A model generated the notes under the pieces. It worked only from the letters and a program-made list of their open reading frames with translations. It had not been told where the DNA came from and searched no databases. A stretch of 58,645 nucleotides of DNA, from positions 1-58,645 of the IMG/VR virus record IMGVR_UViG_3300012895_000001. One strand, 5' to 3'. The translations under genes were made by a program, and so were the position numbers. The number at the start of each line of letters is the position of its first letter. Position 1 is the stretch's first letter. Origin of the DNA: a virus. Lineage: Duplodnaviria; Caudoviricetes. Positions 6,450 to 58,645 of the stretch are shown one piece after another.

Positions 6450-6450
6450 C

Positions 6451-9033: not shown

Positions 9034-9038
9034 ATATC

Positions 9039-9365: not shown

Positions 9366-9536
9366 GCGCGCACGAAATTAAACCAAATCCTATCGGGGGG
9401 GGGGGGATTTGGAAATCCAGACTCACGCTTGCAAAATCTTTTACATCGGCGACGGGATTTGCGCTTGTTGGAAATTTGGCCGGGAAACGCCTTGGGGGGA
9501 AGAAAATACTGTGACACGAATTAACACGAACGAATT

Positions 9537-10297: not shown

Positions 10298-10938
10298 GCG
10301 ACGAACATATCGAAATCAGCGGCGTGGCCAGCCGGCCATCATCGAACGAGTTGGAACGCCGCGCCCGCGATGCCGAGCCGTTGGATGATGAATCCGGCCC
10401 TCAAAGCAGCCTCGCGCTGGATCTGGCCGAACAGTTCCGGGGCGACGTGGTGAGCGATGTGACCGCGCCGGAAATCCTGCTGTTCCTGGCCGAGCGTGGC
10501 GCGTTGCCGGCGGTCAATGGCCGTCACCATGCGGAAGTCCAGAACGCGGACGGCAAATACAAGGAACTGACGGCCATCTTGCTCAAGGTGCTGGATTACA
10601 CGCGACCACCCGACCGTCCGGGCAAGGATGAATTCGATGTGCTGTCCACCATGCGCGTGCGCCGTTACGCCGTGCTGCACGCCTTCGACCAGGAACAATT
10701 CGACTTTATGAACGGCAACCTGAACACGCAGGAATTCGCCGCCACGGTGAAGGTGTTGAAGCTGAATTATGTCAAGGGCAAGGTGCGCCGGACGGAAAAG
10801 GCGCTGACGAAGGCGGCGGTTAATAACGCCGTTTTGGATGCGCAGAAACATTTTCAACTTCCCCCAAGGCGGGATCAGCGCAACGAGGAAACGCGGGACA
10901 AGCAATCCAAGGTGCGCAAGGGGCAGTTGGCAGCTTAA
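10294..10938 (+). CDS. putative transcription regulator with C-terminal HTH-like region
   Basis: TQEFAA...LTKAAVNNAV..AQKHF; resembles the ORF at 31469. Confidence 0.5.
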   Translation: MSDEHIEISGVASRPSSNELERRARDAEPLDDESGPQSSLALDLAEQFRGDVVSDVTAPEILLFLAERGALPAVNGRHHAEVQNADGKYKELTAILLKVLDYTRPPDRPGKDEFDVLSTMRVRRYAVLHAFDQEQFDFMNGNLNTQEFAATVKVLKLNYVKGKVRRTEKALTKAAVNNAVLDAQKHFQLPPRRDQRNEETRDKQSKVRKGQLAA

Positions 10939-15283: not shown

Positions 15284-15709
15284 ATGAAAATTAAAACTGA
15301 AATAGAGTTCGCGCCGTTTTTGATACGGATTTCCGCCGGTGTCCGCTATTGGGAAGATGCCAAGATCAACGGAGTCGAGGATTCTGATGGCTCATTGATT
15401 CCGCACAGGCAGTTCGACTCGTGGAAGCCGGTGATTTATTTTGCCACCGGCCAAGTTTTGAACTGGCCGAACATTCCAAAACCAATTTCAGCGGACATCC
15501 ATTACAAGGTCTGCGATGCCGGCGAATACTGGCTGGAAGATGTTGACGGGAAGCGCGTGAAATACAAGGGCGACTACGTTCCTTCGTTCCTATCCGTTGG
15601 CGAGCGCGGCTGCGGCGATTACATCGTTTTGAAAATCAAGCCGGATGGATTTATCGAAGGATGGCAGCAGCCGGAACTTGATGGCGACGATTGGATTTTG
15701 GAAAAATGA
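15284..15709 (+). CDS. hypothetical protein
   Basis: ORF between TerS and TerL, coupled to TerL. Confidence 0.65.
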   Translation: MKIKTEIEFAPFLIRISAGVRYWEDAKINGVEDSDGSLIPHRQFDSWKPVIYFATGQVLNWPNIPKPISADIHYKVCDAGEYWLEDVDGKRVKYKGDYVPSFLSVGERGCGDYIVLKIKPDGFIEGWQQPELDGDDWILEK

Positions 15710-17754
15710 CCGCACACACCACCCATGCAGAACGCGACCCGTTGGAATACCAACTTGACGCGGAATTCTTTGGCCGGCTGGCCCAGCCGCGATTCCGCGG
15801 CCAGATTTGGGATTATGCCCGCACGTTTGAGTTGGGAAGCAGTTACGAGGTGCCCAAGGATAATGTCTGCCGTGATTGCCGCGCGCAGGGCATCAAGCGT
15901 TGCCGCCATTTCGAGATTGATACCGCCCGGCAACTGGTCGGGCCGATGCAGGCCATCCGCGATGATAATGTCCGCATGGTGATGGTGTTGAAGGCCACGC
16001 AGACGCTCGGCTCGCTGGTCTGGGATCTGGCACTGCATTGGTTCATCGTCCATTCGCCTTACCAGACGATGATCGTGTTTCTTGACGCGGACGACAAGGC
16101 GCAGAATTATTGCGACAAGCGGCTGATGCCGACGTTGAAGGCGAACCCGGACATCGAGCCGTTCATCCCGACGGGTATTGACCGGCATGACGCGACGAAA
16201 ACGGACATCAAGTTCACGAACGGAAAAATCATCCGCATCTGCGGTTTGAACGAATCCAATGCGTCGTCGCTGACCTGGCAGGTGGTGGTGATTGACGAGG
16301 GCTGGTTACATTATTCGGACGGGCTGATGCAGAAAGGTATTGACCGTGCCAAGCAGGTGGAGAACCGGAAGGTCATCATCATCGGTCAGGCAGGCAAGGC
16401 GGATGAGGACCAGGATAAACTGTGGAAGGGTTTGAACAAGCGCGTGCCGCTGACGTTCGCGTGTCCGTGTTGCGATGGGCGGCAGGAATTTTCTTTCACG
16501 AAGGCGCGACCGGAAGATTTCCAGCCGATAATCCGCGAAGGTGTTGAGCCGCCCAAGCCCGGCACCTACTACGGCTTGACGGTGCCGCAACGGTTCAGCG
16601 AGATAACGGACGTGAAGGCGGCGGCGAAGGAAGCCTATTACGAATGTTACCACTGCGGCCATCATATCGCCGACACGAAGGAAAACCGCGCCGCGATGAT
16701 GGCGACCTACCAGCAGGACTGGCAGATGAACGGTTTGACGCCGCCGAATTACGAGGTGGGTTTCTGGAATCCCGACCCCGCAAGCGTGACCTTGCCGTTT
16801 GCGCAGACGATGGCGGCGTATATCGCGGCGAGCAAGGCGGACAAGGAGCGCGGAAACCGGCAGCCGTTGATGGATTTTTACCAGAACCGTTGGGCGACGG
16901 CGTGGAGCGACGGCATCATCGGCATCGGTGCGGCCGCCTTGCCCATGCACATTTTTGACGCGGACAAGCCATTGCCGGGCGAACTGGTGCGAATCGCGGG
17001 TGTGGACGTGCAGGACAATCTCACGAATGTCTGGATTCAGATTTGGGCGATTGGCGAAGGGGCGGCCATGCGGCTGCTCTGGTGGGAGCATGTCGAATCG
17101 CCGATGGGCATGACCTTGCTGGAACGCCGGGCGCATGTCAAAAACCGTTGCCGTGAATTGTTCAAAAAATTCAAGGTGCAACCGCAAAATGTGAAGTTCG
17201 ATAGGGCGCACGTTCCTGAAATCATTTTTGAATGGGCGGCCGAGGATTGCGTCCGGGGCGGCTGGCTGCGTGACCGCGCCGGCAACAAAACGAAACAGGA
17301 TGTGTTTTACGGTCTGGTGCTGGGCGATCCGTCCAAGGGTTACAAGCACAAGACGCGCGGCAACAAATATGTGTGGGCCGGATTCAGCCCGGTCTTTTAC
17401 GAGCAAGTAGTTTTGACCAACAAGCTGGGGCAGCGGGAGGTGTTGCGCGTGCCGTATCGGTTGATGTCCACCGACCGCTCGCAAAAGCTGGCGCAACGGT
17501 TCATAGACCAGCAGGATTCTCCGAAAATGGAGATCCCGCCAGCTTACCTCGCGGATAAATCATTGCTCGGATTCTGGTCGCAACTCAATTCCGAGACGCA
17601 GGTTTTGGAAAAGGGAAAAATGGTGTGGCGGCAGATCAGCCAGCGACCAAATCATGGACGCGATGGATTCCGCATGGTATTGATGCGGATGGAGGAGGTC
17701 GGTCTGCTGACGTTTGTGAAACAGGAAGTGGAGGAAGCAGATGCCGCAGATTGA
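15706..17754 (+). CDS. terminase large subunit, lambda GpA type
   Basis: VLKATQ.., VVIDE Walker B, CPCC and CYHC Zn motifs, F.Q.R.A..W, GVDVQ, NH.RD. Confidence 0.85.
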   Translation: MTAHTTHAERDPLEYQLDAEFFGRLAQPRFRGQIWDYARTFELGSSYEVPKDNVCRDCRAQGIKRCRHFEIDTARQLVGPMQAIRDDNVRMVMVLKATQTLGSLVWDLALHWFIVHSPYQTMIVFLDADDKAQNYCDKRLMPTLKANPDIEPFIPTGIDRHDATKTDIKFTNGKIIRICGLNESNASSLTWQVVVIDEGWLHYSDGLMQKGIDRAKQVENRKVIIIGQAGKADEDQDKLWKGLNKRVPLTFACPCCDGRQEFSFTKARPEDFQPIIREGVEPPKPGTYYGLTVPQRFSEITDVKAAAKEAYYECYHCGHHIADTKENRAAMMATYQQDWQMNGLTPPNYEVGFWNPDPASVTLPFAQTMAAYIAASKADKERGNRQPLMDFYQNRWATAWSDGIIGIGAAALPMHIFDADKPLPGELVRIAGVDVQDNLTNVWIQIWAIGEGAAMRLLWWEHVESPMGMTLLERRAHVKNRCRELFKKFKVQPQNVKFDRAHVPEIIFEWAAEDCVRGGWLRDRAGNKTKQDVFYGLVLGDPSKGYKHKTRGNKYVWAGFSPVFYEQVVLTNKLGQREVLRVPYRLMSTDRSQKLAQRFIDQQDSPKMEIPPAYLADKSLLGFWSQLNSETQVLEKGKMVWRQISQRPNHGRDGFRMVLMRMEEVGLLTFVKQEVEEADAAD

Positions 17755-22148: not shown

Positions 22149-23204
22149 ATGGCAATTCAACAACTCGCTACTCTCTGGACGCCGGACGTGTGGATTCCGG
22201 GCATCGCTGAAAAGCAGGCCACGTTCCCCTCGCTGTTCAACAGCAAGGCGGTCACGCGCACCAACCTTTTGACCGAACTCGCCAGCGGCGAGGGCACCAA
22301 GGCCAACGTGCCGTTCCTTAAGGACATCACGGACCAGGCCAACGAGGTCCAGATCGAGCACACCGCCCCGACGACCATCAATGGTGCGCCCGGCGATGTC
22401 TGCAAATTCCCCATCCTGAACCGCGTGACCAAGAATGCGTGGACGGCGATGGCCAAGAATGTTTCCGGCGCGGACATCATGGATCATGTGTTCGGCACGA
22501 TGGGCCAACGCTGCCTCAAGCAGTATCAGACCACGCTCATCGCGATGGCGCGCGGCTTGTTCGGTTCGGCGGGCGCAATCAACGCGGCGGGTGCCCTGAC
22601 GGATGTGCGCTACGGCGGCACGACCGGCGAAGTTTTCTCGGAAACCGGTCTCGCGGCCCCGGACGCGGCTTTGATGTCGCCCGACTTGTTCATTGATACC
22701 TGCGCGTTGCTCGGCGAATTGGAGGACACGCTCAAGACGGGCGCGATCTTCATCCATCCGACGGTTTTGGCCCGCTTGAAAAAGCTGGACGTGAATGGTT
22801 TCAAAACCACGGTGATGCCGAGCGAACTGCCTTTCACCATCCGCACCTATCGCGATGTGCCGATCTTCACCAGCACGGCTTTGCGCCGGGCGGGCACGAC
22901 CAACGGGTTCGTGTATGACACTTACATCTTTGCCGAGAACAGCATCGGTTTCGGTGAAAAACCGCAGGTGGCGGACAAGTCGGACTTGGCCAGCCTGGCT
23001 TATTTCTTCGACCGCGACCTGAACGACGACCTGATCTGGGATCGCCGCCGGATTTCGTTCGGCCTGGACGGCACGGCGTTTGATGATTCTTCCCTCGGCG
23101 CTTCGAGCGCGACGGATGCGGAATTGCAGACGGCGGCCAAATGGTCGCTGAAATATCAGTCCGCCAACCGCGTTGGCGCGGCTTGTATCCGCACCAACGG
23201 GTAA
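22149..23204 (+). CDS. major capsid protein
   Basis: 351 aa in the canonical position; P.VW, NVPF, IHPTV...L. Confidence 0.8.
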   Translation: MAIQQLATLWTPDVWIPGIAEKQATFPSLFNSKAVTRTNLLTELASGEGTKANVPFLKDITDQANEVQIEHTAPTTINGAPGDVCKFPILNRVTKNAWTAMAKNVSGADIMDHVFGTMGQRCLKQYQTTLIAMARGLFGSAGAINAAGALTDVRYGGTTGEVFSETGLAAPDAALMSPDLFIDTCALLGELEDTLKTGAIFIHPTVLARLKKLDVNGFKTTVMPSELPFTIRTYRDVPIFTSTALRRAGTTNGFVYDTYIFAENSIGFGEKPQVADKSDLASLAYFFDRDLNDDLIWDRRRISFGLDGTAFDDSSLGASSATDAELQTAAKWSLKYQSANRVGAACIRTNG

Positions 23205-49252: not shown

Positions 49253-49555
49253 ATGTCGCCAAACGAATCCGAAAAGCCGGCGCAACCAATCATGGCTAAA
49301 ACCGATTCATGTCCGGCGTGCGGCATGGACTGGACCGCCCATGCGGGCATCGCCGTCACTTGCGCGGTATCGCAGAAAGCAATGGCGGAGCTTGCCCAAG
49401 CCAACACCGAAAACGCTGAATTACGCCGGCAGTTGCGCGACCGGAACCATCTGCTGCTCGCCGCCAAGCTCGCCTGGCTGCCGGACGATGCCGAAGATTT
49501 CAGCGACGACGCCTTTGCCGTGGAGATTATGAAAAAGTTCAAAACCAAAACCTAA
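49253..49555 (+). CDS. hypothetical protein
   Basis: CPACG..W..H.G...TC; coupled to the next gene. Confidence 0.55.
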   Translation: MSPNESEKPAQPIMAKTDSCPACGMDWTAHAGIAVTCAVSQKAMAELAQANTENAELRRQLRDRNHLLLAAKLAWLPDDAEDFSDDAFAVEIMKKFKTKT

Positions 49556-50307
49556 TGAACATCACACACAAATGGGAGCGGTTCATGGCGGTCGGCTGTT
49601 CGCACGGCAATCTGATAGATCCGAATGCGCGGTCGGCGGCGTTGGAATTCAAATCCCGGTTCAAGCCGAAGCGAATATTTCATTTGGGCGATTGGTGTGA
49701 CACGGCGGCGTTGCGGGCCGGGGCGAAAGGCACCAGTGATGAAGATGAGCCGGTTTCCCCGGACATTGACATCGGCCTCGAATTTCTTGAAGAACTTGGC
49801 GTGACGGATTGCCCAATGGGAAACCACGACGAACGGCCTTACCGATTCCTGAAACATCACAACGCCATCATCAGTGGGTTCGCCTCGCTTTTGGTTTATG
49901 GTGACGGGAAGAAGAAACTCGGCATCGAGGGCGAGATGAAGCGGTTGAAAATAAACTGGGTCAACACCTGGAGCATCCGCAACTGGATTTACGCCTACGA
50001 CATCAAATTCATGCACGGCTATATGTTCGGCCAGCAATGTGCGCGGGATCATGCTGAAGCGCACGGCAACGTCGTTTTTGCCCACGCGCACACGGCTGCC
50101 CAGCAGCAGGGCCGGCGCGACGACAACCCCTTCGGCATCTGCGTCGGCACCCTTGCCGGCATTGACAACATGGATTACGCCAAGAACCGTCGGCAGACGC
50201 ACGCATGGTCGGCGGGCATCGTCTATGGCGAAGGCTGCGTGAACAAACTCGGCTGGATTCAGCTTTTCAATAACGGCCAGAAAAAGGAATGGCGATTGCC
50301 TGTATGA
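49555..50307 (+). CDS. calcineurin-like metallophosphoesterase
   Basis: GCSHG, HLGDW.D, GNHD.R, FMHG, AHAH motifs. Confidence 0.85.
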   Translation: MNITHKWERFMAVGCSHGNLIDPNARSAALEFKSRFKPKRIFHLGDWCDTAALRAGAKGTSDEDEPVSPDIDIGLEFLEELGVTDCPMGNHDERPYRFLKHHNAIISGFASLLVYGDGKKKLGIEGEMKRLKINWVNTWSIRNWIYAYDIKFMHGYMFGQQCARDHAEAHGNVVFAHAHTAAQQQGRRDDNPFGICVGTLAGIDNMDYAKNRRQTHAWSAGIVYGEGCVNKLGWIQLFNNGQKKEWRLPV

Positions 50308-50531
50308 GCGCGCTGAACAAAACGGCGGCGAGGCTCGTTAGCGAACTTTTCCAAGAAAAGATTGTTGACGAAAAGGCGGAAACGGTCCGTGAAATAGCAA
50401 AAAAGAAAAATGCCAGCATTCGTCAGACATCAAGGCAAATTGAGCAATGGATTTCCACCGGGAAAATTGAAATGGTTTGGAAGCGTGGAACTATCCGGCT
50501 CGTGCCCGCCTACCGCATCAAAAAGCCATGA
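50304..50531 (+). CDS. small winged-helix protein
   Basis: TVREIAKK...I..GKIE. Confidence 0.55.
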   Translation: MSALNKTAARLVSELFQEKIVDEKAETVREIAKKKNASIRQTSRQIEQWISTGKIEMVWKRGTIRLVPAYRIKKP

Positions 50532-50779
50532 GCGCCGGCCGCAAACAGGTCAAGATCACCGCCGACCTAGTTGCGCGCACCCTGCACGCCCTGGACGAAT
50601 TGAACGTGCCTTACGTCGTCTTGATTGAAGGCATCCCGGCTTCATTCACGAACAGTTCGCGCCTGCACGCGGCGGCCATCGTGGAACAATCCTATCTGCT
50701 AGCCAACAAGATTCAAGAGATCGAGGTGGAAGCCGAGGCCGATAAACAGACGGCCATCCCGCGCAAGGATGAGTCGTGA
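50528..50779 (+). CDS. hypothetical protein
   Basis: ATGA-coupled ORF. Confidence 0.55.
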   Translation: MSAGRKQVKITADLVARTLHALDELNVPYVVLIEGIPASFTNSSRLHAAAIVEQSYLLANKIQEIEVEAEADKQTAIPRKDES

Positions 50780-50958
50780 ATTATCCGCTTGCATCCCGGC
50801 GCGATTGACTTAACTTCGTTTTTGTTGACGAAAGCACGAGCGGGCTTAGGCCGCTCCCCGAAGATTGACGTAAGGAGCAGAACTTTGATTCTGTGGTGGG
50901 TGGTGTAAATCCACTGTGACCGCCGGTGCCGTATAAACGCGGAGCCAAGTCAACAAAC

Positions 50959-51048
50959 GGAGCGGTGGCAGAGAGGCTGATAGCATCCGGCTCGAACCCG
51001 GATTTACCAGAAATGGTAACGGAGGTTCAAATCCTTCTCGCTCCGCCA
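50959..51048 (+). tRNA. tRNA-Ser(CGA)
   Basis: GGAGCGG acceptor, TCCGG-CTCGAAC-CCGGA anticodon arm, long variable arm, GGTTCAAATCC, encoded CCA. Confidence 0.85.
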
Positions 51049-51190
51049 ATTTTAGTGACGCCGGAAACGGTGGGAAGTTTTGAGAATGACAGCCAACGCA
51101 TCCGCCGCAAGGATGGAAGCTAGTGAGTGCCGAGAGGTTCATTGCGCTGTGTGGCTCCAAACAGCAATCCAGTGATTGCCGTCACTATTC

Positions 51191-51276
51191 GGAAGTTGTC
51201 CGGCTGGTCGAGGACACTCGTTTGAAGCGAGCAACGGGTAACACCGTCGGGGGTTCGAGTCCCTCAGCTTCCGCCA
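51191..51276 (+). tRNA. tRNA-Ser(TGA)
   Basis: GGAAGTT acceptor, CTCG-TTTGAAG-CGAG, long variable arm, GGTTCGAGTCC, encoded CCA. Confidence 0.75.
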
Positions 51277-51380
51277 ATTTAACTCATCCGCCATGTGTGG
51301 AAGGAGCTATGGTTCAGCTTCGGCTGGGCCGTCAATTCTTAAACGGGTTCTCGACAATGAAAGAATTGTCCTAGACCTAT

Positions 51381-51411
51381 GCCGCCGGAGTAAAATCCGG
51401 CGGCTTTATTT
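51381..51411 (+). terminator. rho-independent terminator
   Basis: GCCGCCGGA-gtaaaa-TCCGGCGGC followed by TTTATTT. Confidence 0.65.
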
Positions 51412-51439
51412 TCCATTTTGACTCCTTCGCATTTGAGCA

Positions 51440-51739
51440 ATGGCAACACCTTCGCGGCTTGAAAATTCTTCCAACCTCGTCCAAAAAACCATTGAAGAAA
51501 GAAGCAAGATTTACGGCGACCCGCGCCTGTCGCACGAAAACATCGGCCTCGCGTGGACGGGCATGATCCAGCAGCACTACGGCATCCGCCTCGACCATCC
51601 ATTGCCCGACTGGCTGGTGGAACTGATGATGGTGCAGTTCAAATGCCAGCGGTCGGCACGGGTTTATCATGGTGATAATTACGTTGACGCGCGTGCCTAC
51701 CTGCAATTCGCCGAGCAAGACCAGCAGACGGAGGCGTGA
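51440..51739 (+). CDS. DUF6378-like phage protein
   Basis: ER..IYGDP.....IG..W...MM..FK..R...H.DNYVD...Y. Confidence 0.75.
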   Translation: MATPSRLENSSNLVQKTIEERSKIYGDPRLSHENIGLAWTGMIQQHYGIRLDHPLPDWLVELMMVQFKCQRSARVYHGDNYVDARAYLQFAEQDQQTEA

Positions 51740-51757
51740 GGAAAGTTATTTGGAAAC

Positions 51758-52732
51758 TCACAACTGATCCAGCGGACTTTTCGCGTGATTCAGATTGACG
51801 CAATGAGTATAAATCATGGTCGTCGTAATATCCTTGTGGCCCAGCAGTGATTGAAGCATCTGCAAATTTCCACCGTTCTCCAAAAAATGCGTGGCAAAGC
51901 TATGGCGGAGAATGTGCGGATGAACCCGCTTGTTGATTTTGGCGCGCTGGCCGGCCAGCCGCAGGGCGGTTTGAAACCCATTCGGAAACAAGTGGTGCCG
52001 CCGCATCGCACCGTCATCCGCCAGGCAAATCTCGCGTGATGGGAAAACCCATTGCCATTTGAAATCCTTCGGCGCATTGGGATATTTTTTAGCCAGCGCA
52101 TCGGGCAACCAGACCGAGCCAAAACCATTCTTCAAATCATTTTCATGGATTGATTTTGTGTTGGCAACCCTAAGTTGCAAATCATCAATCAGGCTTTTTG
52201 GCATTGGCACCAGGCGGTCTTTTCCGCCTTTGCCGTCCTTGACGATCACCATTTTGTTCCCAAAATCCAGTTCCTTGACCCGCAGGCGAAGGAGTTCCAT
52301 TAAACGCAGGCCGGAACCGTAGCCCAGCTTCGCCAGCAAGAGCCAGTCGCCTTCAAGTTTTTTGAACAATTCAGAAAGCTCATCACGGGTCAGCCATTCG
52401 GGAATGTTCGGCTGCGTCTTGGCGCGTTCGGCCTTCACCTTGCCAAACTCTTTTTGCAGGACATGACGGAACAAAAACAGGAGTGCATTGAACGCCTGAT
52501 TTTGGGTCGAGGCCGAAACTTTCCTGTCAACCGCCAGATGCGTCAGGTATCTTTCAACCATCTTGCCATCCAGACAATCAGCCGTTCCGCAATCCGCCCA
52601 AGAAAAGAAATCAGCGCAAACATTTACATAGGCATAGACCGTGCTTTGAGCCATGTGCGCCGTCGCCATGATTTCCCGCAACCGTTTAATCAATGGCGAC
52701 TTCTGCTTAAATTGTTCAGCCGAGAATAACAC
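51758..52732 (-). CDS. intI: integron integrase
   Basis: VSASTQNQAFNALLF; YGSGLRL.E; KGGKDR; integron-specific insert HENDL..GFGSVWLP.AL.KKYP...W.WVFPS...RRHH; HILRHSFATH; LGH...TMIYTH. Confidence 0.95.
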   Translation of the reverse strand: MLFSAEQFKQKSPLIKRLREIMATAHMAQSTVYAYVNVCADFFSWADCGTADCLDGKMVERYLTHLAVDRKVSASTQNQAFNALLFLFRHVLQKEFGKVKAERAKTQPNIPEWLTRDELSELFKKLEGDWLLLAKLGYGSGLRLMELLRLRVKELDFGNKMVIVKDGKGGKDRLVPMPKSLIDDLQLRVANTKSIHENDLKNGFGSVWLPDALAKKYPNAPKDFKWQWVFPSREICLADDGAMRRHHLFPNGFQTALRLAGQRAKINKRVHPHILRHSFATHFLENGGNLQMLQSLLGHKDITTTMIYTHCVNLNHAKSPLDQL

Positions 52733-52740
52733 AATGTTTG

Positions 52741-52759
52741 TGTCTAATGATTGTTCAGT
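52741..52759 (+). other. attI site (L TGTCTAA, 5-bp spacer, R G|TTCAGT)
   Basis: Adjacent to the intI start; GTTCAGTGGCAC is the exact reverse complement of cassette 1's own R'' region. Confidence 0.7.
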
Positions 52760-53052
52760 GGCACTATTCTATGCCACGGCGTTCTCAGCTTTTCAGGATC
52801 ACCACCGAGCTTGGTAGCGATTTCCCGCATGAGGGGTTCACACATCTTCACAGCCTCTTGCTTGTGGATGTCGCACAGCCGCCACTGCATCACAGAGCCA
52901 TCGTCCATCAGTGCCGGAGATTGCCACTCTGCGTTTTCTTGGCATCTGTAGTCTCGGAAGTTGTATAGCCAGTCACACTGTGCCACTGAACCACTTGATG
53001 GAGTGGACACGGCGGGCGTCGTAGGCGATTTGATAACGTCAGGATTGTTCAT
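52744..53052 (-). CDS. cassette 1 ORF, Cys-containing hypothetical protein
   Basis: Start inside attC1, stop inside attI. Confidence 0.6.
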   Translation of the reverse strand: MNNPDVIKSPTTPAVSTPSSGSVAQCDWLYNFRDYRCQENAEWQSPALMDDGSVMQWRLCDIHKQEAVKMCEPLMREIATKLGGDPEKLRTPWHRIVPLNNH

Positions 53053-53087
53053 GGTCTTTGTTCGTGCCACTCATCGCGGCGTTCAGC
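52985..53087 (+). other. attC1
   Basis: ACTGAAC...GAT(G)GAGTGG / CCACTCATC...GTTCAGC. Confidence 0.85.
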
Positions 53088-53598
53088 TTCCGCCGCTCAC
53101 ACCCGCTGCGCTGGGGTGTGCCGGCTGGGTTACGCTTTTAGTTCCTGCCCGTTCATTCCAGTTAGAAATCGCGCGTTTAAGCGTAATGGCTCCAACAGAC
53201 ACCTCTGCCGGACATTCCATGTTCACACAAAATAGCTGCCAATAATCTGGCTCGATGCTTGTTTCCTTGGGTTGTGCGCCACAAAACGGGCAGGGCAACG
53301 CCTCAAGTCCAGCCGGACCGCTTTGGAAGCTGAACGTCTGAGCTATCAGCGCTGGCTTCATCTTCCGCTCATCGCTGGACGGCAGACTTGCCATTGGAGC
53401 GTTCTGGCTCTGCACGCTTTCAGGCTCGACAGGCGCGGCGGAAGCTGAACCCATCGCTGAAGGTGGACACCCGTGCCGGGCTTCGCTGCGCTCCGTCCCT
53501 GAATCAAGCACACCACCACGCACGATGTCGCCAAGTCTCTCCAAAAGTTCTTTTCTTCGTTTGCCTTTTTTCATATATGCTTGATTCAGGGATGCCAC
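53083..53598 (-). CDS. cassette 2 ORF with Lar-like (restriction alleviation) Zn finger; start uncertain
   Basis: LPCPFCG...C...C......AI..WN.RA. Confidence 0.65.
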   Translation of the reverse strand: MASLNQAYMKKGKRRKELLERLGDIVRGGVLDSGTERSEARHGCPPSAMGSASAAPVEPESVQSQNAPMASLPSSDERKMKPALIAQTFSFQSGPAGLEALPCPFCGAQPKETSIEPDYWQLFCVNMECPAEVSVGAITLKRAISNWNERAGTKSVTQPAHPSAAGVSGGS

Positions 53599-53616
53599 TT
53601 AGCTCAGACGTTAGGG
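53444..53616 (+). other. attC2 (long, 173 bp)
   Basis: GCTGAAC...GCTGAAGGTGG / CCACTTAGC...GTTAGGG; inner 15-bp inverted repeat TCCCTGAATCAAGCA. Confidence 0.75.
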
Positions 53617-53642
53617 CACTTAGTCTCCTCGTGCCGTTGCGT

Positions 53643-53894
53643 TCACGGTTCGATTGTGTTTGGGAATGGAATCGGACCACCTTTGCCTTCCATTGCAGCC
53701 TTGATGTCATCGGCGTGCAGACACTCACGCAGGTCTGGGCATCGGTCGTTGTTGGACGGGATTGCGATTTTCCCGTTACACATATCGTTGCCGGGAGTTG
53801 CATCGTAGAGGATTCCCGCCACTGGCGGCCCATACGATGGGATCAATACCACCTTGTCACCGTTCCTTGCTTCTCTGCCGTTCTTGTAGTGCAT
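53643..53894 (-). CDS. cassette 3 ORF, phage-type hypothetical protein
   Basis: MHYKNGREA.NGD.V...G...CNG...CLHADD. Confidence 0.75.
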   Translation of the reverse strand: MHYKNGREARNGDKVVLIPSYGPPVAGILYDATPGNDMCNGKIAIPSNNDRCPDLRECLHADDIKAAMEGKGGPIPFPNTIEP

Positions 53895-53924
53895 GTTATT
53901 TTGTTTTTGTTGTTATCCGCCGTG

Positions 53925-54016
53925 CCCTAACCAGTCAGTTGAGCGAAAGCGACGGGCGACCGCCTTCGCAAATTCAACGCTTATTGTCCGCCGCTCCGCT
54001 CACTTCCGCGTTCGTG
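53925..54016 (+). other. attC3
   Basis: CCCTAAC...AGT(T)GAGCG / CGCTCACT...GTTCGTG. Confidence 0.85.
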
Positions 54017-54153
54017 GACTTCGCCCATCGAGCTTTCGCGGCGGCACTGGCCGCTTGTTTGCGCTCGGCTTTGGACATTCCAGCCCATCGTGATTTTCCG
54101 CCCTTCACTTGGTTTTGTGCCTTGAAGGTATGGCCGCATTTTGGGCATTTCAT
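53974..54153 (-). CDS. cassette 4 gene 2: CPKCGH Zn knuckle plus basic 'GG.SRW...AAKARW' protein
   Basis: ATGA-coupled to the upstream gene; stop inside attC3. Confidence 0.65.
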   Translation of the reverse strand: MKCPKCGHTFKAQNQVKGGKSRWAGMSKAERKQAASAAAKARWAKSTNAEVSGAADNKR

Positions 54154-54437
54154 GCGAGCCTCGCTTTCTCCCGTTCGACCACCGTTTTTTGCAGCGTCGA
54201 GACATTGGGATGTTTCATCCAGATTGCGACCCGGCACGCCACGGTTGCCCGCTGGCTGTAGTCGCCCGTTTGCCAGAGGTAGCGCAGGCCTCGCACGGCT
54301 TGATCGCGCAGGATTTGCCGCACTTTGGCATCGTCCGCTTCTGGGTGTTTCGATGTTCTCCACTCGGCGAAGATGCGAGCGCAGCAGTCGGCGAGGGCGT
54401 AGGATTCCATGAATGGCATTGGTATTTGTTGTTTCAT
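54150..54437 (-). CDS. cassette 4 gene 1, hypothetical protein
   Basis: Starts 8 nt below the -10 box. Confidence 0.65.
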   Translation of the reverse strand: MKQQIPMPFMESYALADCCARIFAEWRTSKHPEADDAKVRQILRDQAVRGLRYLWQTGDYSQRATVACRVAIWMKHPNVSTLQKTVVEREKARLA

Positions 54438-54445
54438 ACGCCACC

Positions 54446-54474
54446 ATCTTATGCGAGCTAGCTCGCATTGTCAA
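54446..54474 (-). promoter_or_regulatory. cassette-internal promoter TTGACA-17-TAAGAT with perfect 18-bp palindrome ATGCGAGCTAGCTCGCAT
   Basis: Directly visible. Confidence 0.8.
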
Positions 54475-54498
54475 GCGGTTATTTTTATTCGACCAGTC

Positions 54499-54606
54499 CC
54501 CGAACCATGCGCTGATGCAGACCACCGGCCACGCTGCCCGTGAATCGGTAACGTCCCTTGCGCTCGTGAGTTGGTCGGTCGGTGGCTGCATAGCTATTCG
54601 TTCGGC
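54499..54606 (+). other. attC4
   Basis: CCCGAAC...GCT(G)ATGCAG(A)CCACCG / CGGTGGCTGCATAGC...GTTCGGC. Confidence 0.9.
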
Positions 54607-55157
54607 TTCATGAACACCATCCAATGCGTCTTGGCCGTTTTGCCACACCGTTGCCCCACGAGCGGACGCTCGGGAGTGAGTGCCAGTATTTGTGAGACTG
54701 GCACTTCGTGTTCGTTCCATTTGAAAATCAGAGTCCCTTCCGGCCGCAGCACGCGGAAGCATTCAGCGAAGCCGAGGCGCAGCATCTCTTTCCAGTCGCC
54801 TTCGAGCTTGCCGTATTTCTTGGCCTGCCATCCCTTCTTGCCGGCCCGCACCAGATGCGGCGGGTCGAACACCACGAGCGCGAAACGGTTGTCAGGCCAC
54901 GGCAGGTTCGTGAAGTCGGCGATGACATCGGGATTCACTTCGAGCGTCCTACTTCCGCCACGACTCGACACGTCCGTCAGCACATGGGTTTCGCGCCGCT
55001 TGTCCGCGAAGATTGCGCGGGAGTCTTTCCGGTCGAACCAGAACATCCGAGAGCCGCAGCACACGTCCACGACAGAAGCCGAACCAGTCGCTGCACGCTC
55101 AATGACTACCGCGTTGACGGTTTCAGGCGAGGCGGACGCTGTTGGCGCGGTAGTCAT
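54594..55157 (-). CDS. cassette 5 ORF: phage SAM-dependent methyltransferase
   Basis: DVCCGSRMFWFD, VVFDPPH, ECFRVL.P.GTLIFKW; start in attC5, stop in attC4. Confidence 0.85.
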   Translation of the reverse strand: MTTAPTASASPETVNAVVIERAATGSASVVDVCCGSRMFWFDRKDSRAIFADKRRETHVLTDVSSRGGSRTLEVNPDVIADFTNLPWPDNRFALVVFDPPHLVRAGKKGWQAKKYGKLEGDWKEMLRLGFAECFRVLRPEGTLIFKWNEHEVPVSQILALTPERPLVGQRCGKTAKTHWMVFMKPNE

Positions 55158-55178
55158 GGCGTGAGCTTCACGTTAGAG
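55078..55178 (+). other. attC5
   Basis: GCCGAAC...GCT(G)CACGC..ATGACTACCGCG / CGCGGTAGTCAT.GCGTGAGC...GTTAGAG. Confidence 0.9.
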
Positions 55179-55360
55179 GCTTGCAGACGTTCCGCACGGT
55201 TCACTTCGCACAGGATGTCCGAGATGGGGTCTTTGTGCTTTTTGGATTTGCAGATTTTTCCAATCATCTCAAGTGCATTTGAGAGGACAGTGATTTTGCG
55301 CCACGCCCGAAGGAGTGATTTGTTCTTGGCTTCGATTATTTGCTTTTTTGTTGCTTTCAT
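55154..55360 (-). CDS. cassette 6 ORF, basic hypothetical protein
   Basis: Stop overlaps the methyltransferase ATG inside attC5. Confidence 0.6.
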   Translation of the reverse strand: MKATKKQIIEAKNKSLLRAWRKITVLSNALEMIGKICKSKKHKDPISDILCEVNRAERLQASNVKLTP

Positions 55361-55384
55361 GTTTTTAGTGTTGTTGATGTTCGC

Positions 55385-55491
55385 CTCTAACCAGTCATCG
55401 CAGACCAACCGCGAGCGGCGCTGCTGGTCAATCGGTAACGTCTGGTGCGCTCGGTCATCATGGTTCGCGGTGGCTGGATTCCACGTTGGGT
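55385..55491 (+). other. attC6
   Basis: CTCTAAC...ATC(G)CAG(A)CCA(A)CCGCGA / TCGCGGTGGCTGGAT...GTTGGGT. Confidence 0.9.
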
Positions 55492-55781
55492 GCTTCAGTA
55501 TTTGACCGCCACTCCTTCCATATTTTTAGTCGCGTTTCCACGTTTTTAAGCTGTCCCCAAGCGCCGTCAATCTCCTCGTCGGTTATTCTTGCGGCCTCTC
55601 TGGCCGCCCTATCGGCCACCACGGCGGCTTGGTGTCTGGCTTTGGCTCGGTCGAGTTCTACGTTTAGACCAACAAGCGTATCACCATTCGGACTTTTGCT
55701 GTTGATGTGGCACTCCGTGCAGACCTGTTCTCCGTTCACGACGAATGCGCCGTGACGCTCTGGATGTTTTTTACAGTTCAT
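55458..55781 (-). CDS. cassette 7 ORF, Zn finger plus coiled coil
   Basis: C..H...CTECH; stop inside attC6. Confidence 0.6.
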   Translation of the reverse strand: MNCKKHPERHGAFVVNGEQVCTECHINSKSPNGDTLVGLNVELDRAKARHQAAVVADRAAREAARITDEEIDGAWGQLKNVETRLKIWKEWRSNTEAPNVESSHREP

Positions 55782-55800
55782 ATTTTTTGCATTTAATCGC

Positions 55801-55899
55801 ACCCAACCAATCACCGAAGCGGACGGCCTTGGGCGCATTTAGTCCGCTCTCGCGGGTGACGCGCCTTGTGGCCGTCCGCCGCTTGGTTCTGCGTTAAAT
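55801..55899 (+). other. attC7 (distal end of the array)
   Basis: ACCCAAC...ACC(G)AAGCGG / CCGCTTGGT...GTTAAAT. Confidence 0.85.
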
Positions 55900-55908
55900 A
55901 ACTGCGCC

Positions 55909-55938
55909 TATAAAAACACAATGAATCAATAGTGTCAA
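55909..55938 (-). promoter_or_regulatory. candidate leftward promoter (TTGACA -35, weak -10) reading into the array
   Basis: Minus strand TTGACA-ctattgattcattgtgt-TTTTAT. Confidence 0.45.
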
Positions 55939-55979
55939 GCGTAATTATTTTGCGACTCAAAGACGCCCGCGCTTGCGTG

Positions 55980-57086
55980 TCACAGCTTTCTCACCGCCGC
56001 ATTCAAATCTTCCATCCGCCCGTGCAGGTAGGTTTTCAGCATCATTTTCCCGCCATCTTTATCGCCACGCAGCAGGGCCACCATCGCTGGCGGAATGTTC
56101 TTGGCCAGCGCGCGGGTCGTGAACAAGTGCCGGAAATCACTCGGCGTCATCGTTGGAATCTTGGCATCCTCGCACGCCCCCGCCAGCGCCCGCCTCGGGC
56201 TTTTGATAGGCACCAGCGGCGAGCGTCCGCCGGGATGAGATTTCAACAATTCCTTCACCACCACGCGCATCTGAAACGCCATCGGCAGTTCATCGGCTTC
56301 CTTGTCATGCTTGATGGCCCGCCAGCGGATTGTATTGCGCTCCAGGTTCACGTCCACTGGCAAGATGGACCGGATGGAATGTGGCCGCTTGCCGGAATAG
56401 GCCAGCGCCCGGATGAACCAATAGGCCCGCCGCCGCGTCGGGTCGCGCCGCAGATGCCTCAACAGTTGCGCCAATTGTTTCTCTGACGGCATCTGGCGCT
56501 CCTTTTTGGGTAAAGCCAGCCGTTTGACCTTCAAAGCGGGATTCGTCGCCGCCAAGCCTAATTCAATCGCCAGATTCAATATCCCGCGCAACGTCTCAAG
56601 GCAGCCATTGAACCGGCCGGGATAATAACCCGCGCGCCAAAACTTGACCGCCCACTCCTTGCAATCCGCCTCGGTGATGTTATTCGCCCGCATCGAATCC
56701 AGATCCGGCCACGTCTTGCGGAGCATCCTTAACGTGTCCAGCCGATATTCTTTGGCGCGCGGCTTGCGCGGCACGCCATCGCGCTTGCAATTAGTGTCCG
56801 CCTTCACCTTCTTCGCCCAGGCATCGGCAACCTGCTTGAAAGCGTAATCGTCCACGTTCGGGCGCCCCGACGTAGCCTTGCGCATCTCCCGCGTTTTCCT
56901 CAAAAGCTCATCCAGCCGCAGCTTGGCGATCTCCGACGACTTCGTTTGGAGGCTTTTTTTGAGTTGCTGACCGCAAACCATCGCCCCGCAAAAGTAGGTG
57001 CCGGAGATGCGGTCGCGGTAAAGATTGGCGAACTTGGTCTTTTGCAGCCTTTTCTTAATGTAAGACGACGATGTAAGAATCTCCAT
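55980..57086 (-). CDS. int: phage integrase (tyrosine recombinase)
   Basis: AYSGKR, K, DFRH, RGD...KTYLH; arm-binding N-terminus; adjacent to attP. Confidence 0.85.
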   Translation of the reverse strand: MEILTSSSYIKKRLQKTKFANLYRDRISGTYFCGAMVCGQQLKKSLQTKSSEIAKLRLDELLRKTREMRKATSGRPNVDDYAFKQVADAWAKKVKADTNCKRDGVPRKPRAKEYRLDTLRMLRKTWPDLDSMRANNITEADCKEWAVKFWRAGYYPGRFNGCLETLRGILNLAIELGLAATNPALKVKRLALPKKERQMPSEKQLAQLLRHLRRDPTRRRAYWFIRALAYSGKRPHSIRSILPVDVNLERNTIRWRAIKHDKEADELPMAFQMRVVVKELLKSHPGGRSPLVPIKSPRRALAGACEDAKIPTMTPSDFRHLFTTRALAKNIPPAMVALLRGDKDGGKMMLKTYLHGRMEDLNAAVRKL

Positions 57087-57092
57087 AAAAGT

Positions 57093-57139
57093 GAGCCAGT
57101 TGTCGGGATTGAACCGACGACCGACGGTTTACGAAACCG
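57093..57139 (-). other. attP core: 3' half of tRNA-Thr(CGT)
   Basis: Minus strand CGGT-TTCGTAA-ACCG, GTCGG-TTCAATC-CCGAC, acceptor strand; no 5' half. Confidence 0.8.
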
Positions 57140-57403
57140 AATGACTACCTACATAAGCCTTCACAGTCAATTCCAAATGCCGGTTTTATTGGCTTTTTTG
57201 ATTGTCAGATTGCGAAAACATCCACTCACAACCACCCAGATTCACCATTTTAAGGCCACCTATGTAAGAACTGCCTATGTAAGATGGGTTTTTTGAGGTT
57301 AAGAAATTTATTAGTTTTGATTTCATGGGGTGCGGTTGTTATGGTTGGCGCTTCACATTTTTAGCCAAATGGCACTTCTGTCACAATCTGTATTTGAAAG
57401 GTC

Positions 57404-57775
57404 ATGCAACGACTCTTTGAAGCCTGGCAGGATAAACTGCGGGACGATCCCGATTTATGGACAATTCGACACTGCCTCGGTGCCGGCGGACTGATCTGGC
57501 GCAACCGGGCATACCTTAAAAACCGCTGCCGTTTCGGGATGTTCCCGTCCGAAACGATGGCATGGAGCTGCGCCAGCCTATATGTCTCGCCGGAAGATTT
57601 TGCCCGCGTGGAGGCGGCATACCGGATGGCGCTCGCGGTTCGGACGCCGGTGATGCTGAATGTGACGCTGAAAATCCCACATCGGCATCCGGTCGAATTG
57701 CGGAACATTTTCCTGCTGGCGGTGGAAGGTGACATGAATGATGGGCTGGTGGTCAGTCACCAGTTGCCTTTTTAG
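57404..57775 (+). CDS. stand-alone PAS-like domain protein
   Basis: W.N.AY...FG......YVSPEDFARV...Y..AL....P...V.LK. Confidence 0.5.
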   Translation: MQRLFEAWQDKLRDDPDLWTIRHCLGAGGLIWRNRAYLKNRCRFGMFPSETMAWSCASLYVSPEDFARVEAAYRMALAVRTPVMLNVTLKIPHRHPVELRNIFLLAVEGDMNDGLVVSHQLPF

Positions 57776-58082
57776 ATCCGCCGTCCTCGCCGCCGGCCTT
57801 GCGCTTTTTCTTGGGATTGGCGTTTAGCTTTTTCAGGTCTGCAACGGTTGTGCCTATCTGCCGAATCTTTTGCTGACGTTCGGCGTCTGGTAATACTTTG
57901 GGGTCTGTGGGCGTTTCTGGAACCTTGGCCAGAGTAATTCCGTGCTTCTTCAGATAATCAATGAACGCCTCTCGCGCCAACTCGCTTTCGGATGTTAAAC
58001 GCGAGTCCGACAAGGTTATGAATGCCTGCTTCATAGCCCCCGGAACCCGCACTTTCATTTCCGAATCTTTAACAGTTCCCAT
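57753..58082 (-). CDS. ribbon-helix-helix regulator
   Basis: MKVRVP..MK......SESELAREAF.DYL. Confidence 0.7.
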   Translation of the reverse strand: MGTVKDSEMKVRVPGAMKQAFITLSDSRLTSESELAREAFIDYLKKHGITLAKVPETPTDPKVLPDAERQQKIRQIGTTVADLKKLNANPKKKRKAGGEDGGSKKATGD

Positions 58083-58260
58083 TATAGCCAGTAGTTAGCG
58101 TATTGGAACGCGACTGTTCCTGCTGCAATAGCAGACGGAACGCGCGTCGGGCAATGTCTGAAAGGTCCAGCCCTTCACGAATCGCAATATCTTCCAAGCC
58201 GATCTTCATCCGCCCGTCTGTCCGCACTTTGATTTCTTCTGATAATGCCGCTTTGCTCAT
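58069..58260 (-). CDS. ribbon-helix-helix regulator
   Basis: IKVRTD..MK..L..IA...GLDLSDIARRAF. Confidence 0.7.
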   Translation of the reverse strand: MSKAALSEEIKVRTDGRMKIGLEDIAIREGLDLSDIARRAFRLLLQQEQSRSNTLTTGYNGNC

Positions 58261-58311
58261 AAACCACCTCAATCTTTTGTTTTTAGTTTGTTAAATAACT
58301 CCGCTCACTTC

Positions 58312-58451
58312 GGGAACAATGTCCCACATTGTCCCCATAGTCAAATAAAAATAACGGCAAAAATATACACTTTTGAGCCTTGCTGGCATGGCTAAAAACA
58401 ATATTGAAAAAACCGTTGACACTTGTTCCCCAATGTGAGACACTAGGGACA
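58312..58451. promoter_or_regulatory. divergent PL/PR switch region with CAATGTGRGACA operators
   Basis: Minus TTGACT(58344)-17-CATTGT; plus TTGACA(58416)-17-GACACT; each overlaps an operator copy. Confidence 0.7.
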
Positions 58452-58452
58452 G

Positions 58453-58629
58453 ATGAGAACAGCAACACTTACCGACAACATCAAGACCCGCGTTGAGAAG
58501 AACATCAAAAAGGCTCTCAAATCAATTGCCACCGCCAAGCACTTGGACGTTTCCGACATTCAGCGCGAGGCGTTCCGGGATTTCATCGCCAAGCCTGAAA
58601 ACCGGAAATTGATTCAGGAAGCCAAATGA
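58453..58629 (+). CDS. Cro-analog ribbon-helix-helix protein (leaderless)
   Basis: Own translation: MRTATLTDNIKTRVEKNIKKALKSIATAKHLDVSDIQREAFRDFI... Confidence 0.75.
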   Translation: MRTATLTDNIKTRVEKNIKKALKSIATAKHLDVSDIQREAFRDFIAKPENRKLIQEAK

Positions 58630-58645
58630 CCACTTCCCCGCTCAA

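Follow-up and report, generated by a model that had tools for sequence, protein, structure and literature searches.

In the accepted view, integrons are bacterial devices whose strand-selective recombination serves to place promoterless genes in sense behind the Pc promoter. What, then, is to be made of an integron that lies in a phage genome and whose cassette genes all read the other way? This question is raised by positions 51758-55899 of the Caudoviricetes contig IMGVR_UViG_3300012895_000001, where an integron integrase gene (intI) is accompanied by a putative attI site and by seven cassettes, each with an attC site, and where all 8 cassette open reading frames (ORFs) lie on the minus strand, i.e., the attC bottom strand, and read toward intI. 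The sequence analysed here, referred to below as the window, is the entire IMG/VR virus record of 58,645 bp. With good probability, this locus is a genuine integron resident in a phage, with its coding polarity reversed. Its recombination machinery shows every structural hallmark of an integron, and it is the expression logic that departs from the canonical scheme.

The integron integrase and its attI site

The IntI protein scores 353.5 bits against the TIGR02249 'integron integrase' model (cut-off 265), spanning profile positions 2-315 of 315, and is 40% identical (BLASTP) to IntI1 of plasmid pSN254. Its residues R143, K168, H273, R276, H299 and Y308 align with the IntI1 residues whose numbers we take to be R146, K171, H277, R280, H303 and Y312, and this catalytic R-K-H-R-H-Y set is invariant or nearly so in an alignment of 28 homologues (A1). 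The IntI-specific additional domain, with the stretch ALAKKYPNAPKDFKWQWVF, aligns with IntI1 without a gap. The N-terminal extension is kept in homologues of 323-324 amino acids (aa), so that the GTG at 52732 is a plausible start codon. The nearest IntI proteins come from metagenomes and reach 79% identity (the set at 70-79% includes P0002, P0005 and P0014), and among the matches listed for GTDB species genomes (80 loci kept) the highest identity is 47% (50% if a partial match is counted). Single-protein searching of IMG/VR confirmed no close IntI relatives, and it was replaced by an alignment-based search.

A distance of 21 nt separates the intI start codon from the crossover point of the candidate attI site. 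The sequence TTTGTGT(C/G)TAAT(G/A/C)AT(T/G)GTT is conserved next to intI in the window and in three related phage contigs (L002, L082 and L083), whose IntI proteins are 58-61% identical to that of the window, and the likeness stops after GTT. While this core is kept, the first cassette differs in 4/4 of the loci compared, which was the outcome of a comparison that the original prediction had proposed. Folding detected no attC-like stem-loop to the left of the 52753 site. A conserved simple site followed by a different first cassette in each relative supports both the attI assignment and the crossover point, and positions 52736-52756, lying next to intI and carrying a G↓TT crossover (the arrow marks the exchange point), would qualify as attI on their sequence.

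A diverged direct repeat, 22/30 identical, was also observed at 52700-52745 and 55887-55935. It contains TTCTGC, TTAAAT, AACACAATG and a short palindrome ending in GTGTC; the first copy comprises the first codons of intI together with attI, and the second directly follows the last attC. These copies could be IntI-binding repeats of an original empty attI, an operator, or a chance resemblance.

The seven attC sites

Cassettes that arrive as circles and are inserted at G↓TT would each start with the complement of their own R'' box. A script that collects words starting with GTT whose reverse complement ends in AAC downstream returned such a chain: the G residues at 52753, 53081, 53610, 54600, 55172 and 55485 pair with R'' boxes ending at 52991, 53450, 53931, 55084, 55391 and 55807, respectively. 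The complement is exact in these cassettes, numbers 1, 2, 3, 5, 6 and 7 (lengths in Table 1), and in cassette 4 (G54010; R'' ending at 54505) 10/11 of the first positions are complementary. Inverted GTT..AAC pairs of this kind (k at least 9, spacing 150-700 nt) number 14 in the whole window, 8 of them within the 3.2-kb array, and shuffles of the array yield a mean of 0.08 and a maximum of 2. Seven attC sites are thereby placed on the plus strand, with G↓TT crossovers at 53081, 53610, 54010, 54600, 55172, 55485 and 55893. The last crossover, G55893↓TTAAAT, follows from the family alignment, after which an end of attC7 at G55886 was dropped, and it agrees with the end coordinate 55899 given in the original prediction.

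All sites (7/7) fold into an R box, an unpaired spacer of 4-5 nt and an L stem; the stem bears single-base bulges, which on the minus strand are in the 3' arm, and the R box comprises 9 bp when each site is closed with its own cassette start. In the consensus fold, which was derived from an alignment of 11 sites (A2; six from the window and five from its relative L002), the R box and a 5-nt spacer are followed by 3 bp, a bulged base, 6 bp and a second bulged base, and compensatory changes occur in 12/16 pairs. A covariance model built from plus strands, R1, with attC2 outside its training set, gives 7 matches in the window, every one of them on the plus strand and inside the array. A further model, R2, was trained solely on canonical arrays: its 67 attC sites come from genomes of Verrucomicrobiae, Spartobacteria, Gammaproteobacteria and Planctomycetota and from other metagenome loci, and include the class 1 site, while no rows from the window or L002 are among them. 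It recovers the seven sites of the window and no others: all seven matches are on the plus strand, with E-values of 3e-8 to 2.4e-4, and nothing else reaches E<=1 on either strand of the 58,645 bp. The original prediction had described an IntI with the integron-specific insert and an intact R-K-H-R-H-Y set, an attI abutting its start, seven attC sites and seven complement lengths (10/11 for cassette 4), and had named bottom-strand folding and an attC covariance model as checks; each of these elements is borne out, and the sites pass both checks.

The loops of attC1, attC4 and attC6 of the window and of attC1 of L002 have one conserved stretch in common. Cassette 2 contains an extra internal R''-like box with 11 bp of complementarity to the cassette start (53325-53368 and 53435-53460) together with a 23-nt inverted repeat that involves the true R'' region, and its attC2 is unusually long (169 nt). 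ORF2 may be an attC-derived N-terminal part fused to a Lar domain, or cassette 2 may be the product of two merged cassettes.

Which strand is the attC top strand

The complementarity between cassette starts and R'' boxes pairs the same boxes under both polarity models, so the polarity rests on other evidence. The bulged bases of the window sites occupy the 5' arm of the plus strand, i.e., the arm opposite the minus-strand AAC triplet. According to the available text of Nivina et al. 2016 (PMC5027507), the bottom strand carries its extrahelical bases on the arm opposite the AAC triplet, and known attC sites have a purine-poor top strand, a property that is found for the top strand in 11/12 phage attC sites. 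The control was the aadA attC of the pSN254 class 1 integron: its gene-sense strand likewise bulges on the 5' arm, and R1 matches this attC on the aadA sense strand with 40.2 bits. At the far end of the array, no partner was found for the right box of attC7 beyond 55900. The bulge geometry, the aadA control, the strand of the R1 and R2 matches, the two array ends and the base composition all agree with the earlier claim that the plus strand is the canonical attC top strand.

Cassette genes and cargo

The coordinates of the array and of other features of the window are collected in Table 1.

Table 1. Features of the integron and of the surrounding phage sequence (window coordinates)
Feature	Positions	Strand	Remarks
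intI, integron integrase	51758-52732	-	324 aa, GTG start; TIGR02249
attI core, TTTGTGTCTAATGATTG↓TT	52736-52756	+	crossover between 52753 and 52754
Cassette 1 (attC1 52983-53081)	52754-53081	+	12-bp complement; R1 64.5, R2 31.6 bits
ORF1	52744-53070	-	102-108 aa; starts in attC1 loop, stops in attI core
Cassette 2 (attC2 53442-53610)	53082-53610	+	16-bp complement; R1 19.1 bits (E 0.011), R2 30 bits
ORF2	53083-53598	-	171 aa; Lar-like zinc-finger restriction-alleviation domain, residues 100-151
Cassette 3 (attC3 53923-54010)	53611-54010	+	10-bp complement; R1 70.7, R2 32.8 bits
ORF3	53643-53894	-	83 aa; N-terminus MHYKNGRE; codon score +7.9
Cassette 4, two ORFs (attC4 54497-54600)	54011-54600	+	10/11 complement; R1 78.5, R2 37.6 bits
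ORF4a	54150-54437	-	95 aa; codon score +9.3
ORF4b	53974-54153	-	59 aa; zinc-ribbon-like, basic tail; stops 37 nt past cassette border, inside attC3
Cassette 5 (attC5 55076-55172)	54601-55172	+	10-bp complement; R1 53.9, R2 26 bits
DNA methyltransferase	54594-55157	-	187 aa; phrog_954 E 2.1e-72; codon score +27
Cassette 6 (attC6 55383-55485)	55173-55485	+	9-bp complement; R1 67.4, R2 35.8 bits
ORF8	55154-55360	-	68 aa from ATG; codon score +13.3 for longer ORF
Cassette 7 (attC7 55799-55893)	55486-55893	+	9-bp complement; R1 73.3, R2 41.4 bits over 55799-55901
ORF9	55458-55781	-	107 aa from ATG; Cys/His-rich; stops 28 nt past border, inside attC6
Second tyrosine integrase, phage type	55980-57086	-	PF00589 28.8 bits; phrog_1 E 1.2e-24
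tRNA gene 3' part without 5' half, attP-like	57093-57139	-	adjoins phage integrase
DUF6378 protein	51440-51739	+	PF19905, E 2.3e-11; between tRNA genes and intI 3' end
Two tRNA-Ser genes	50959-51048 and 51191-51276
RecT-like protein	2672-3736	+
DnaB-like helicase	7741-9033	+
Large terminase (TerL)	15691-17754	+
Major head protein	22149-23204	+

A codon model trained on the long ORFs of the phage favours the minus strand in 5/7 cassettes; the score of ORF1, -0.3, is weak, yet it is the best in cassette 1. In cassette 2, the coding strand is settled by the Lar match on the minus strand: ORF2 reaches 32.5 bits against PF14354 (cut-off 28.6) and also matches phrog_599, and its match to TIGR03655 (29.9 bits) is under the cut-off of 39.6. 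In cassette 5, the start and the first ~27 codons of the methyltransferase gene lie inside attC5, and its stop codon lies 7 nt past the cassette border. The TGA of ORF8 overlaps the methyltransferase ATG as ATGA, inside attC5. For the six remaining ORFs, nothing was found above the cut-offs in Pfam, NCBIfam or PHROGs; the zinc-ribbon matches of ORF4b are weak and all under the cut-offs. The nearest protein clusters of ORF3 are 100% Viruses at 0.96 in an atlas that serves as a lead only, and a 46%-identical homologue of ORF3 lies upstream of intI in the viral locus L013.

The ORF map, together with the PF14354 and phrog_954 matches on the minus strand, upholds the claim that all 8 ORFs are antisense to attC and read toward intI. 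As for the phage-type cargo that had been proposed, the Lar-like domain and the methyltransferase are confirmed, and for the MHYKNGRE-type ORF3 there is only the lead from viral clusters. We infer that the cargo consists of phage accessory genes that are at least partly anti-restriction, namely the Lar-like protein and the orphan DNA methyltransferase.

A promoter-like sequence, TTGACA-17-TAAGAT (10/12 matches), runs from 54474 to 54446 on the minus strand and precedes ORF4a. This sigma-70-like site overlaps a 16-nt palindrome at 54449-54464, just upstream of ORF4a and ORF4b, and cassette 4 is perhaps a self-regulated two-gene module of the toxin-antitoxin or regulator type.

Gene-attC junctions and a putative operon

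Within each cassette, the ORF comes after the attC when read in gene sense. Start codons fall within the attC loop in 3/7 window cassettes (those of ORF1, ORF2 and the methyltransferase) and in 4/6 L002 cassettes, and the remaining start codons of both arrays follow 7-60 nt after attC. The N-termini encoded by attC are alike in non-homologous methyltransferases (MTTAPTASAS in the window, MTTAPTDSES in L083), and a similar likeness is seen between ORF1 of the window (MNNPDV) and a 97-aa ORF of L002 (MKNPDV). At the other gene end, the R box is read through, with AAC as an Asn codon, by 5/7 border-adjacent ORFs in the window and by 5/7 in L002. Their stop codons come 2-12 codons further on, within the neighbouring attC or within attI, and the other ORFs stop in or before the R box. 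An ATGA overlap of a stop codon with the following ATG is present in two window attC sites, attC5 and attC6, and in three more that belong to L002 and L083. The last junction is equally tight, with the intI start 11 nt after the ORF1 stop in the window, a stop codon abutting the intI ATG in L002, and overlapping genes in L083.

The presence in several attC sites of one gene's stop and the next gene's start points to one leftward operon ending in intI. Directly upstream of the array, in the gene-reading direction, lies the phage-type integrase gene, and we infer that this gene, the cassettes and intI would be transcribed leftward as a single unit with coupled translation, intI being the last gene and the attC hairpins serving as between-gene junctions. 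Such a unit would need no Pc promoter and would tie IntI synthesis to array transcription. Promoterless top-strand genes expressed from Pc, the usual content of an integron, are absent, and with all 8 ORFs on the bottom strand Pc-driven expression of them is impossible.

Recurrence of the reversed layout in other phages

The viral contigs L002 and L003 stem from different samples, encode an IntI 61% identical to that of the window, and carry six or seven attC sites opposite to the intI strand, with 6-7 ORFs all reading toward intI; their cargo includes a C5 methyltransferase and an acetyltransferase. The layout is also reversed in L083 (IntI 58% identical; two methyltransferases) and in L082 (61%). 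Outside intI, the window and L002 show scattered weak tblastx matches only, so the integron resides in different phage backbones. L002 additionally holds a second mini-array at 2373-3023 on the plus strand, with two attC sites, about 4 kb from the main array and in opposite orientation. Its methyltransferase gene (1736-2491) and a 181-aa ORF lie on the minus strand, and thus the genes are again on the attC bottom strand.

For a broader survey, loci were oriented with intI on the plus strand and attC strands were counted with R1. Matches fall on the minus strand in 91/95 cases for 80 viral loci plus the plasmid control, in 44/45 for 80 metagenome loci and in 83/83 for 80 GTDB loci, showing that the attC orientation relative to intI is canonical everywhere. 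The coding strand of the cassettes was called by a per-locus codon model, a home-made heuristic; a longest-ORF rule was rejected because GC-rich shadow ORFs mislead it, with 3/6 L002 cassettes miscalled. By the codon model, 38 cassettes of the viral loci read toward intI and 6 away, the corresponding numbers being 0 and 13 for metagenome loci, 2 and 32 for GTDB genome loci, and 0 and 1 for the class 1 control. Pfam matches above the cut-off were obtained for 4/12 intI-directed ORFs of viral loci (C5 methylase in L063, N6_N4 methylase in L007, HD_4 in L058 and MmcB-like in L035) and for 0/8 long ORFs on the opposite strand; a DHH match of an intI-directed ORF in L040 is below the cut-off. In canonical arrays, 3/7 attC top-strand ORFs have Pfam matches (APH, Hexapep and DUF5343), and the sole match on the other strand is an IS66 transposase.

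The largest ORF in 10 reversed loci encodes a tail protein in 4, a ParB-like protein in 2, and a terminase, a head protein and a Mu-like transposase in 1 each, with 1 unassigned. The large ParB-like proteins stand beside the integron in L040 (10972-12894) and L009 (4452-6677). An IntI tree with 53 rows places the window in a 5-row clade whose members are all reversed (support 96/88), and the reversed rows as a whole form about three groups. The reversed label requires 8 changes on this tree, versus 17.9 in shuffles, and 0/500 shuffles were as low as 8. Related rows share labels, so the tree shows clustering, not a number of origins. The reversed layout is not peculiar to the phage of the window but recurs, as judged from these sequences, in several phage-borne IntI lineages, and the window appears to belong to lineages in which reversed polarity is the rule.

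The phage genome around the integron

That the integron is resident in a temperate tailed phage genome is supported by the IMG/VR virus record itself, by the RecT, DnaB, TerL and head genes, by the second integrase with its attP-like tRNA, and by an independent contig. Coding is on the minus strand throughout 51758-57086, comprising intI, the eight small ORFs and the second tyrosine integrase, and the AT skew flips its sign over 52-58 kb, i.e., over this minus-coded block. Beyond the phage integrase, the tRNA fragment at 57093-57139 reads CGT in its anticodon loop, followed by the T arm and the acceptor end. ARAGORN called no tRNA at these positions, and contigs of runs X3 and X4 (lake and freshwater, respectively) continue past 57139 as a full tRNA. 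By its sequence and its place beside the phage integrase, this fragment has the form of an attP. The idea that the 5.9-kb block of intI, array and phage integrase gene is a separate island inserted in a phage tRNA-Ser gene was rejected: the fragment lies on the other strand and is unrelated to either tRNA-Ser, and hence the block is not an island bounded by tRNA repeats.

The assembly is corroborated by a 9240-bp Logan contig, assembled independently from the probable source run (soil), which spans 49407-58645 with zero differences and contains a phage phosphoesterase gene, the tRNAs, intI, the array, the phage integrase gene and the contig end. A chimeric assembly, which the original prediction had named as something that would overturn it, finds no support in this contig. 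A leaf-litter run of another study yielded eight fragments, seven identical to the window and one with 13 differences; among the seven are parts of intI and of cassettes 2 and 5, as well as a fragment at 55609-55925 that extends over the array end. In the lake-water run X3, one low-depth contig matches from 54599, the border of cassette 5, and its preceding 95 letters are unmatched, a weak hint that the methyltransferase cassette may have another neighbour elsewhere. All of these comparisons with sequencing runs were made on assembled contigs, and the uncovered parts in runs X2-X4 and the small shares of X3-X5 are uninformative on absence or habitat.

Some further observations were made around and beyond the integron. 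A strong, terminator-like hairpin lies at 51381-51404, 3' of both tRNA-Ser genes. Beyond the attP-like fragment, three small ORFs (57753-58082 and 58069-58272 on the minus strand, 58453-58629 on the plus strand) resemble ribbon-helix-helix regulators, as judged by eye. A 1493-bp contig of run X1, the probable source metagenome (record 7), carries an 87-nt attC5-like stretch with 10 differences from window positions 55082-55168; its flanks are unrelated on both sides, so that the sample contains a second integron of the same attC family.

Alternative explanations

Several points weigh against the reading of the locus as a phage integron whose coding polarity is reversed. The contig, a metagenome fragment, is linear and has an estimated completeness of 73%. 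In the assembled contigs, no recombination product, circular cassette or same-phage array variant was seen, nor any joint at a cassette border, on which contigs say little; the L002 and L003 arrays are identical to each other, and the fragments of run X2 are 100% identical to the window. Scanning for the sigma-70 consensus, which may not be that of the host, gave no promoter-like site at the distal end of the array, and the only strong sigma-70-like site of the region lies inside cassette 4. The ORFs that cross cassette borders and the ATGA over 55172/55173 could equally reflect a fixed, co-evolved operon with immobile attC sites. In 9/11 sites, the top strand has G as its first extrahelical base (C on the bottom strand), where the aadA control has C on top, and this atypical base means that strand choice by IntI is derived from geometry only. 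The training sites of R2 were chosen by R1, so that the two models are not fully independent and their E-values are rough. Codon scores are ambiguous for cassettes 2 and 7 of the window (for ORF9, -4.9 versus -0.1 for a 50-aa plus-strand ORF). The heuristic strand survey called 6 viral cassettes canonical, left 63 cassettes undecided (21 + 42), skipped 9 gaps, and dropped 15 loci that lacked training ORFs (L018, L025, L083, L087, L089, L101, L118, L122, L141, L143, L144, L151, L154, L157 and L214). With 6/8 ORFs lacking an assigned function, the notion of an anti-defence cargo rests on two genes.

A number of these points would be accommodated if a once-active integron had become an ordinary phage operon, a relic with a fixed array in which attC sites are gene junctions and IntI is inert. 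The identity of L002 with L003 from different samples and of the X2 fragments with the window, as well as the unseen excision joints, would suit such a relic, and so would the 5/7 border-adjacent ORFs that end 7-37 nt outside their own cassette and the ATGA overlap across a border. However, IntI is intact with all catalytic residues present, the complement between cassette start and R'' is still perfect over 9-16 bp in 6/7 cassettes, and the attI core is kept while the first cassette differs in all four relatives compared. Moreover, a gene that runs through the R box in the AAC frame would still do so after a move beside any other attC or attI of the family, and the match of the one low-depth X3 contig begins at a cassette border. 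A fixed relic is regarded as unlikely. The earlier proposal that the phage shuffles its own genes finds indirect support in the constancy of the attI core beside a variable first cassette (4/4) and in the 2/8 ORFs of anti-restriction type; it gains none from direct observation, since no recombination event, circle or same-phage array variant was seen.

The polarity might instead have been misassigned, the array being canonical on the minus strand (ORF, then attC) with intI merely downstream of an attC cluster. The minus strand does show a hairpin after each ORF, the start/R'' test is symmetric, and the first extrahelical base is G on the plus strand, whereas canonical sites have G on the bottom strand. 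However, bulges opposite the minus-strand AAC triplet correspond to the bottom-strand geometry, both in the folds and the aadA control and in the available text of PMC5027507; R1 and R2, which match canonical arrays in gene sense, give no minus-strand match in the window at E<=1; the 52753 site lacks a left hairpin and keeps its core beside intI, and at the other end the right box of attC7 stays unpartnered; and excision would cost three ORFs their start codon together with 60-150 nt of coding sequence. This alternative is very improbable. An equally remote prospect is that of a host integron on a mis-delimited or chimeric contig, i.e., a bacterial chromosomal fragment joined to or captured with phage DNA. 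The complete integrons published from phage records are mostly host-derived, for example those of Vibrio anguillarum prophages in the available text of PMC9892861, the contig is a linear metagenome fragment, and the attC family resembles that of the Verrucomicrobiae genome L187, with up to 50.9 bits. On the other side, phage or mobile-element genes lie on both flanks with the attP-form tRNA fragment beyond the integron, the independent 9240-bp contig spans the whole region, the best GTDB IntI identity among the matches listed is 47% (50% partial) while metagenome proteins reach 79%, and the reversal is seen in phage contigs, yet in only 2/34 decided bacterial cassettes. A genuine phage-resident integron with reversed polarity remains the most probable reading.

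Relation to known integrons

The window shares with canonical integrons the IntI domain, the R-K-H-R-H-Y residues, an attI at the 5' end of intI, the attC architecture, an attC top strand that points away from intI, and cassette starts that complement their own R''. In contrast to them, its genes are carried by the attC bottom strand and point toward intI, its attC loops carry start codons, and the first extrahelical base on the bottom strand is C rather than G. Because intI is co-directional with the cassette genes and lies 11 nt past the last of them, a Pc/Pint arrangement of the class 1 style cannot work here. With intI 21 nt from the first crossover, the locus is also distinct from a cluster of attC sites lacking an integrase (CALIN).

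Inverted-integrase integrons of the Treponema/Chlorobium type have an intI that is turned round with respect to attI and attC, and their genes remain on the attC top strand. Such integrons resemble the window in that intI is co-directional with the cassette genes. However, in the window intI keeps its canonical orientation relative to attC (intI on the minus strand, attC top strand plus, 5' end of intI abutting attI), and the genes are flipped instead. A phage example of the inverted-integrase layout may be the Caudoviricetes Virus Rctr41k (KX853513, L243), judging from its sequence at 4680-10639: it encodes an IntI homologue with 40% identity, annotated 'xerD integrase-like protein', and shows five weak attC-like matches (E 0.0014-0.078) on the gene strand, between annotated small genes downstream of intI. 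Two methyltransferase-like genes are present in it as well.

Reverse-oriented cassettes in chromosomal integrons are mainly toxin-antitoxin cassettes with their own promoters. They are mentioned in the available text of both PMC9892861 and PMC5027507. The antisense genes are a point of likeness, and cassette 4 of the window, with a promoter-like site and two overlapping small ORFs, comes closest to them, but most window cassettes carry no recognisable promoter. Moreover, in known arrays the reversed cassettes are a minority among sense cassettes, whereas 7/7 in the window and all of those in L002, L082 and L083 are reversed.

Integrons in phages have been reported before. As given in the available text, a screen of 10,705 phage genomes by Qi et al. 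2023 (PMC9892861) yielded 3 complete integrons and 17 attC clusters. The complete integrons were pieces of Vibrio/Shewanella chromosomal integrons, or class 1 integrons on a P1 phage-plasmid; methyltransferases were among the cargo, and phage attC sites were recombined by IntI1. Since integrons and attC clusters in phages are thus already published, an integron in a phage is not in itself new. However, the available text of PMC9892861 describes neither a systematic reversal of the coding strand nor phage-specific IntI lineages. In the full-text literature, as far as it was available, no description was found of systematic bottom-strand cassette genes, although the supplementary annotations of PMC9892861 might show orientations, and none of attC-embedded stop and start codons or of phage-borne IntI lineages with a reversed layout. 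The systematic reversal of cassette genes in phage integrons appears to be new. A further proposition, whose chances we regard as evenly balanced, is that these loci form a distinct phage integron type, marked by mirror-image expression, attC sites as gene junctions, intI as the last gene of an operon, and a separate cassette pool rich in counter-defence genes.

Implications

Bacterial integrons have recently been found to store anti-phage defence cassettes. If the interpretation given here is true, phages would own a dedicated shuffling system for accessory and anti-restriction genes that mirrors those cassettes. The link between the choice of attC strand and expression would then not be fixed but open to rewiring, and many cassettes in viral metagenomes would probably be mis-oriented or missed by tools that expect canonical sense. 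This also opens to testing the questions of what governs integrase expression if intI comes last in the array, and of how cassettes with a 5' attC come about.

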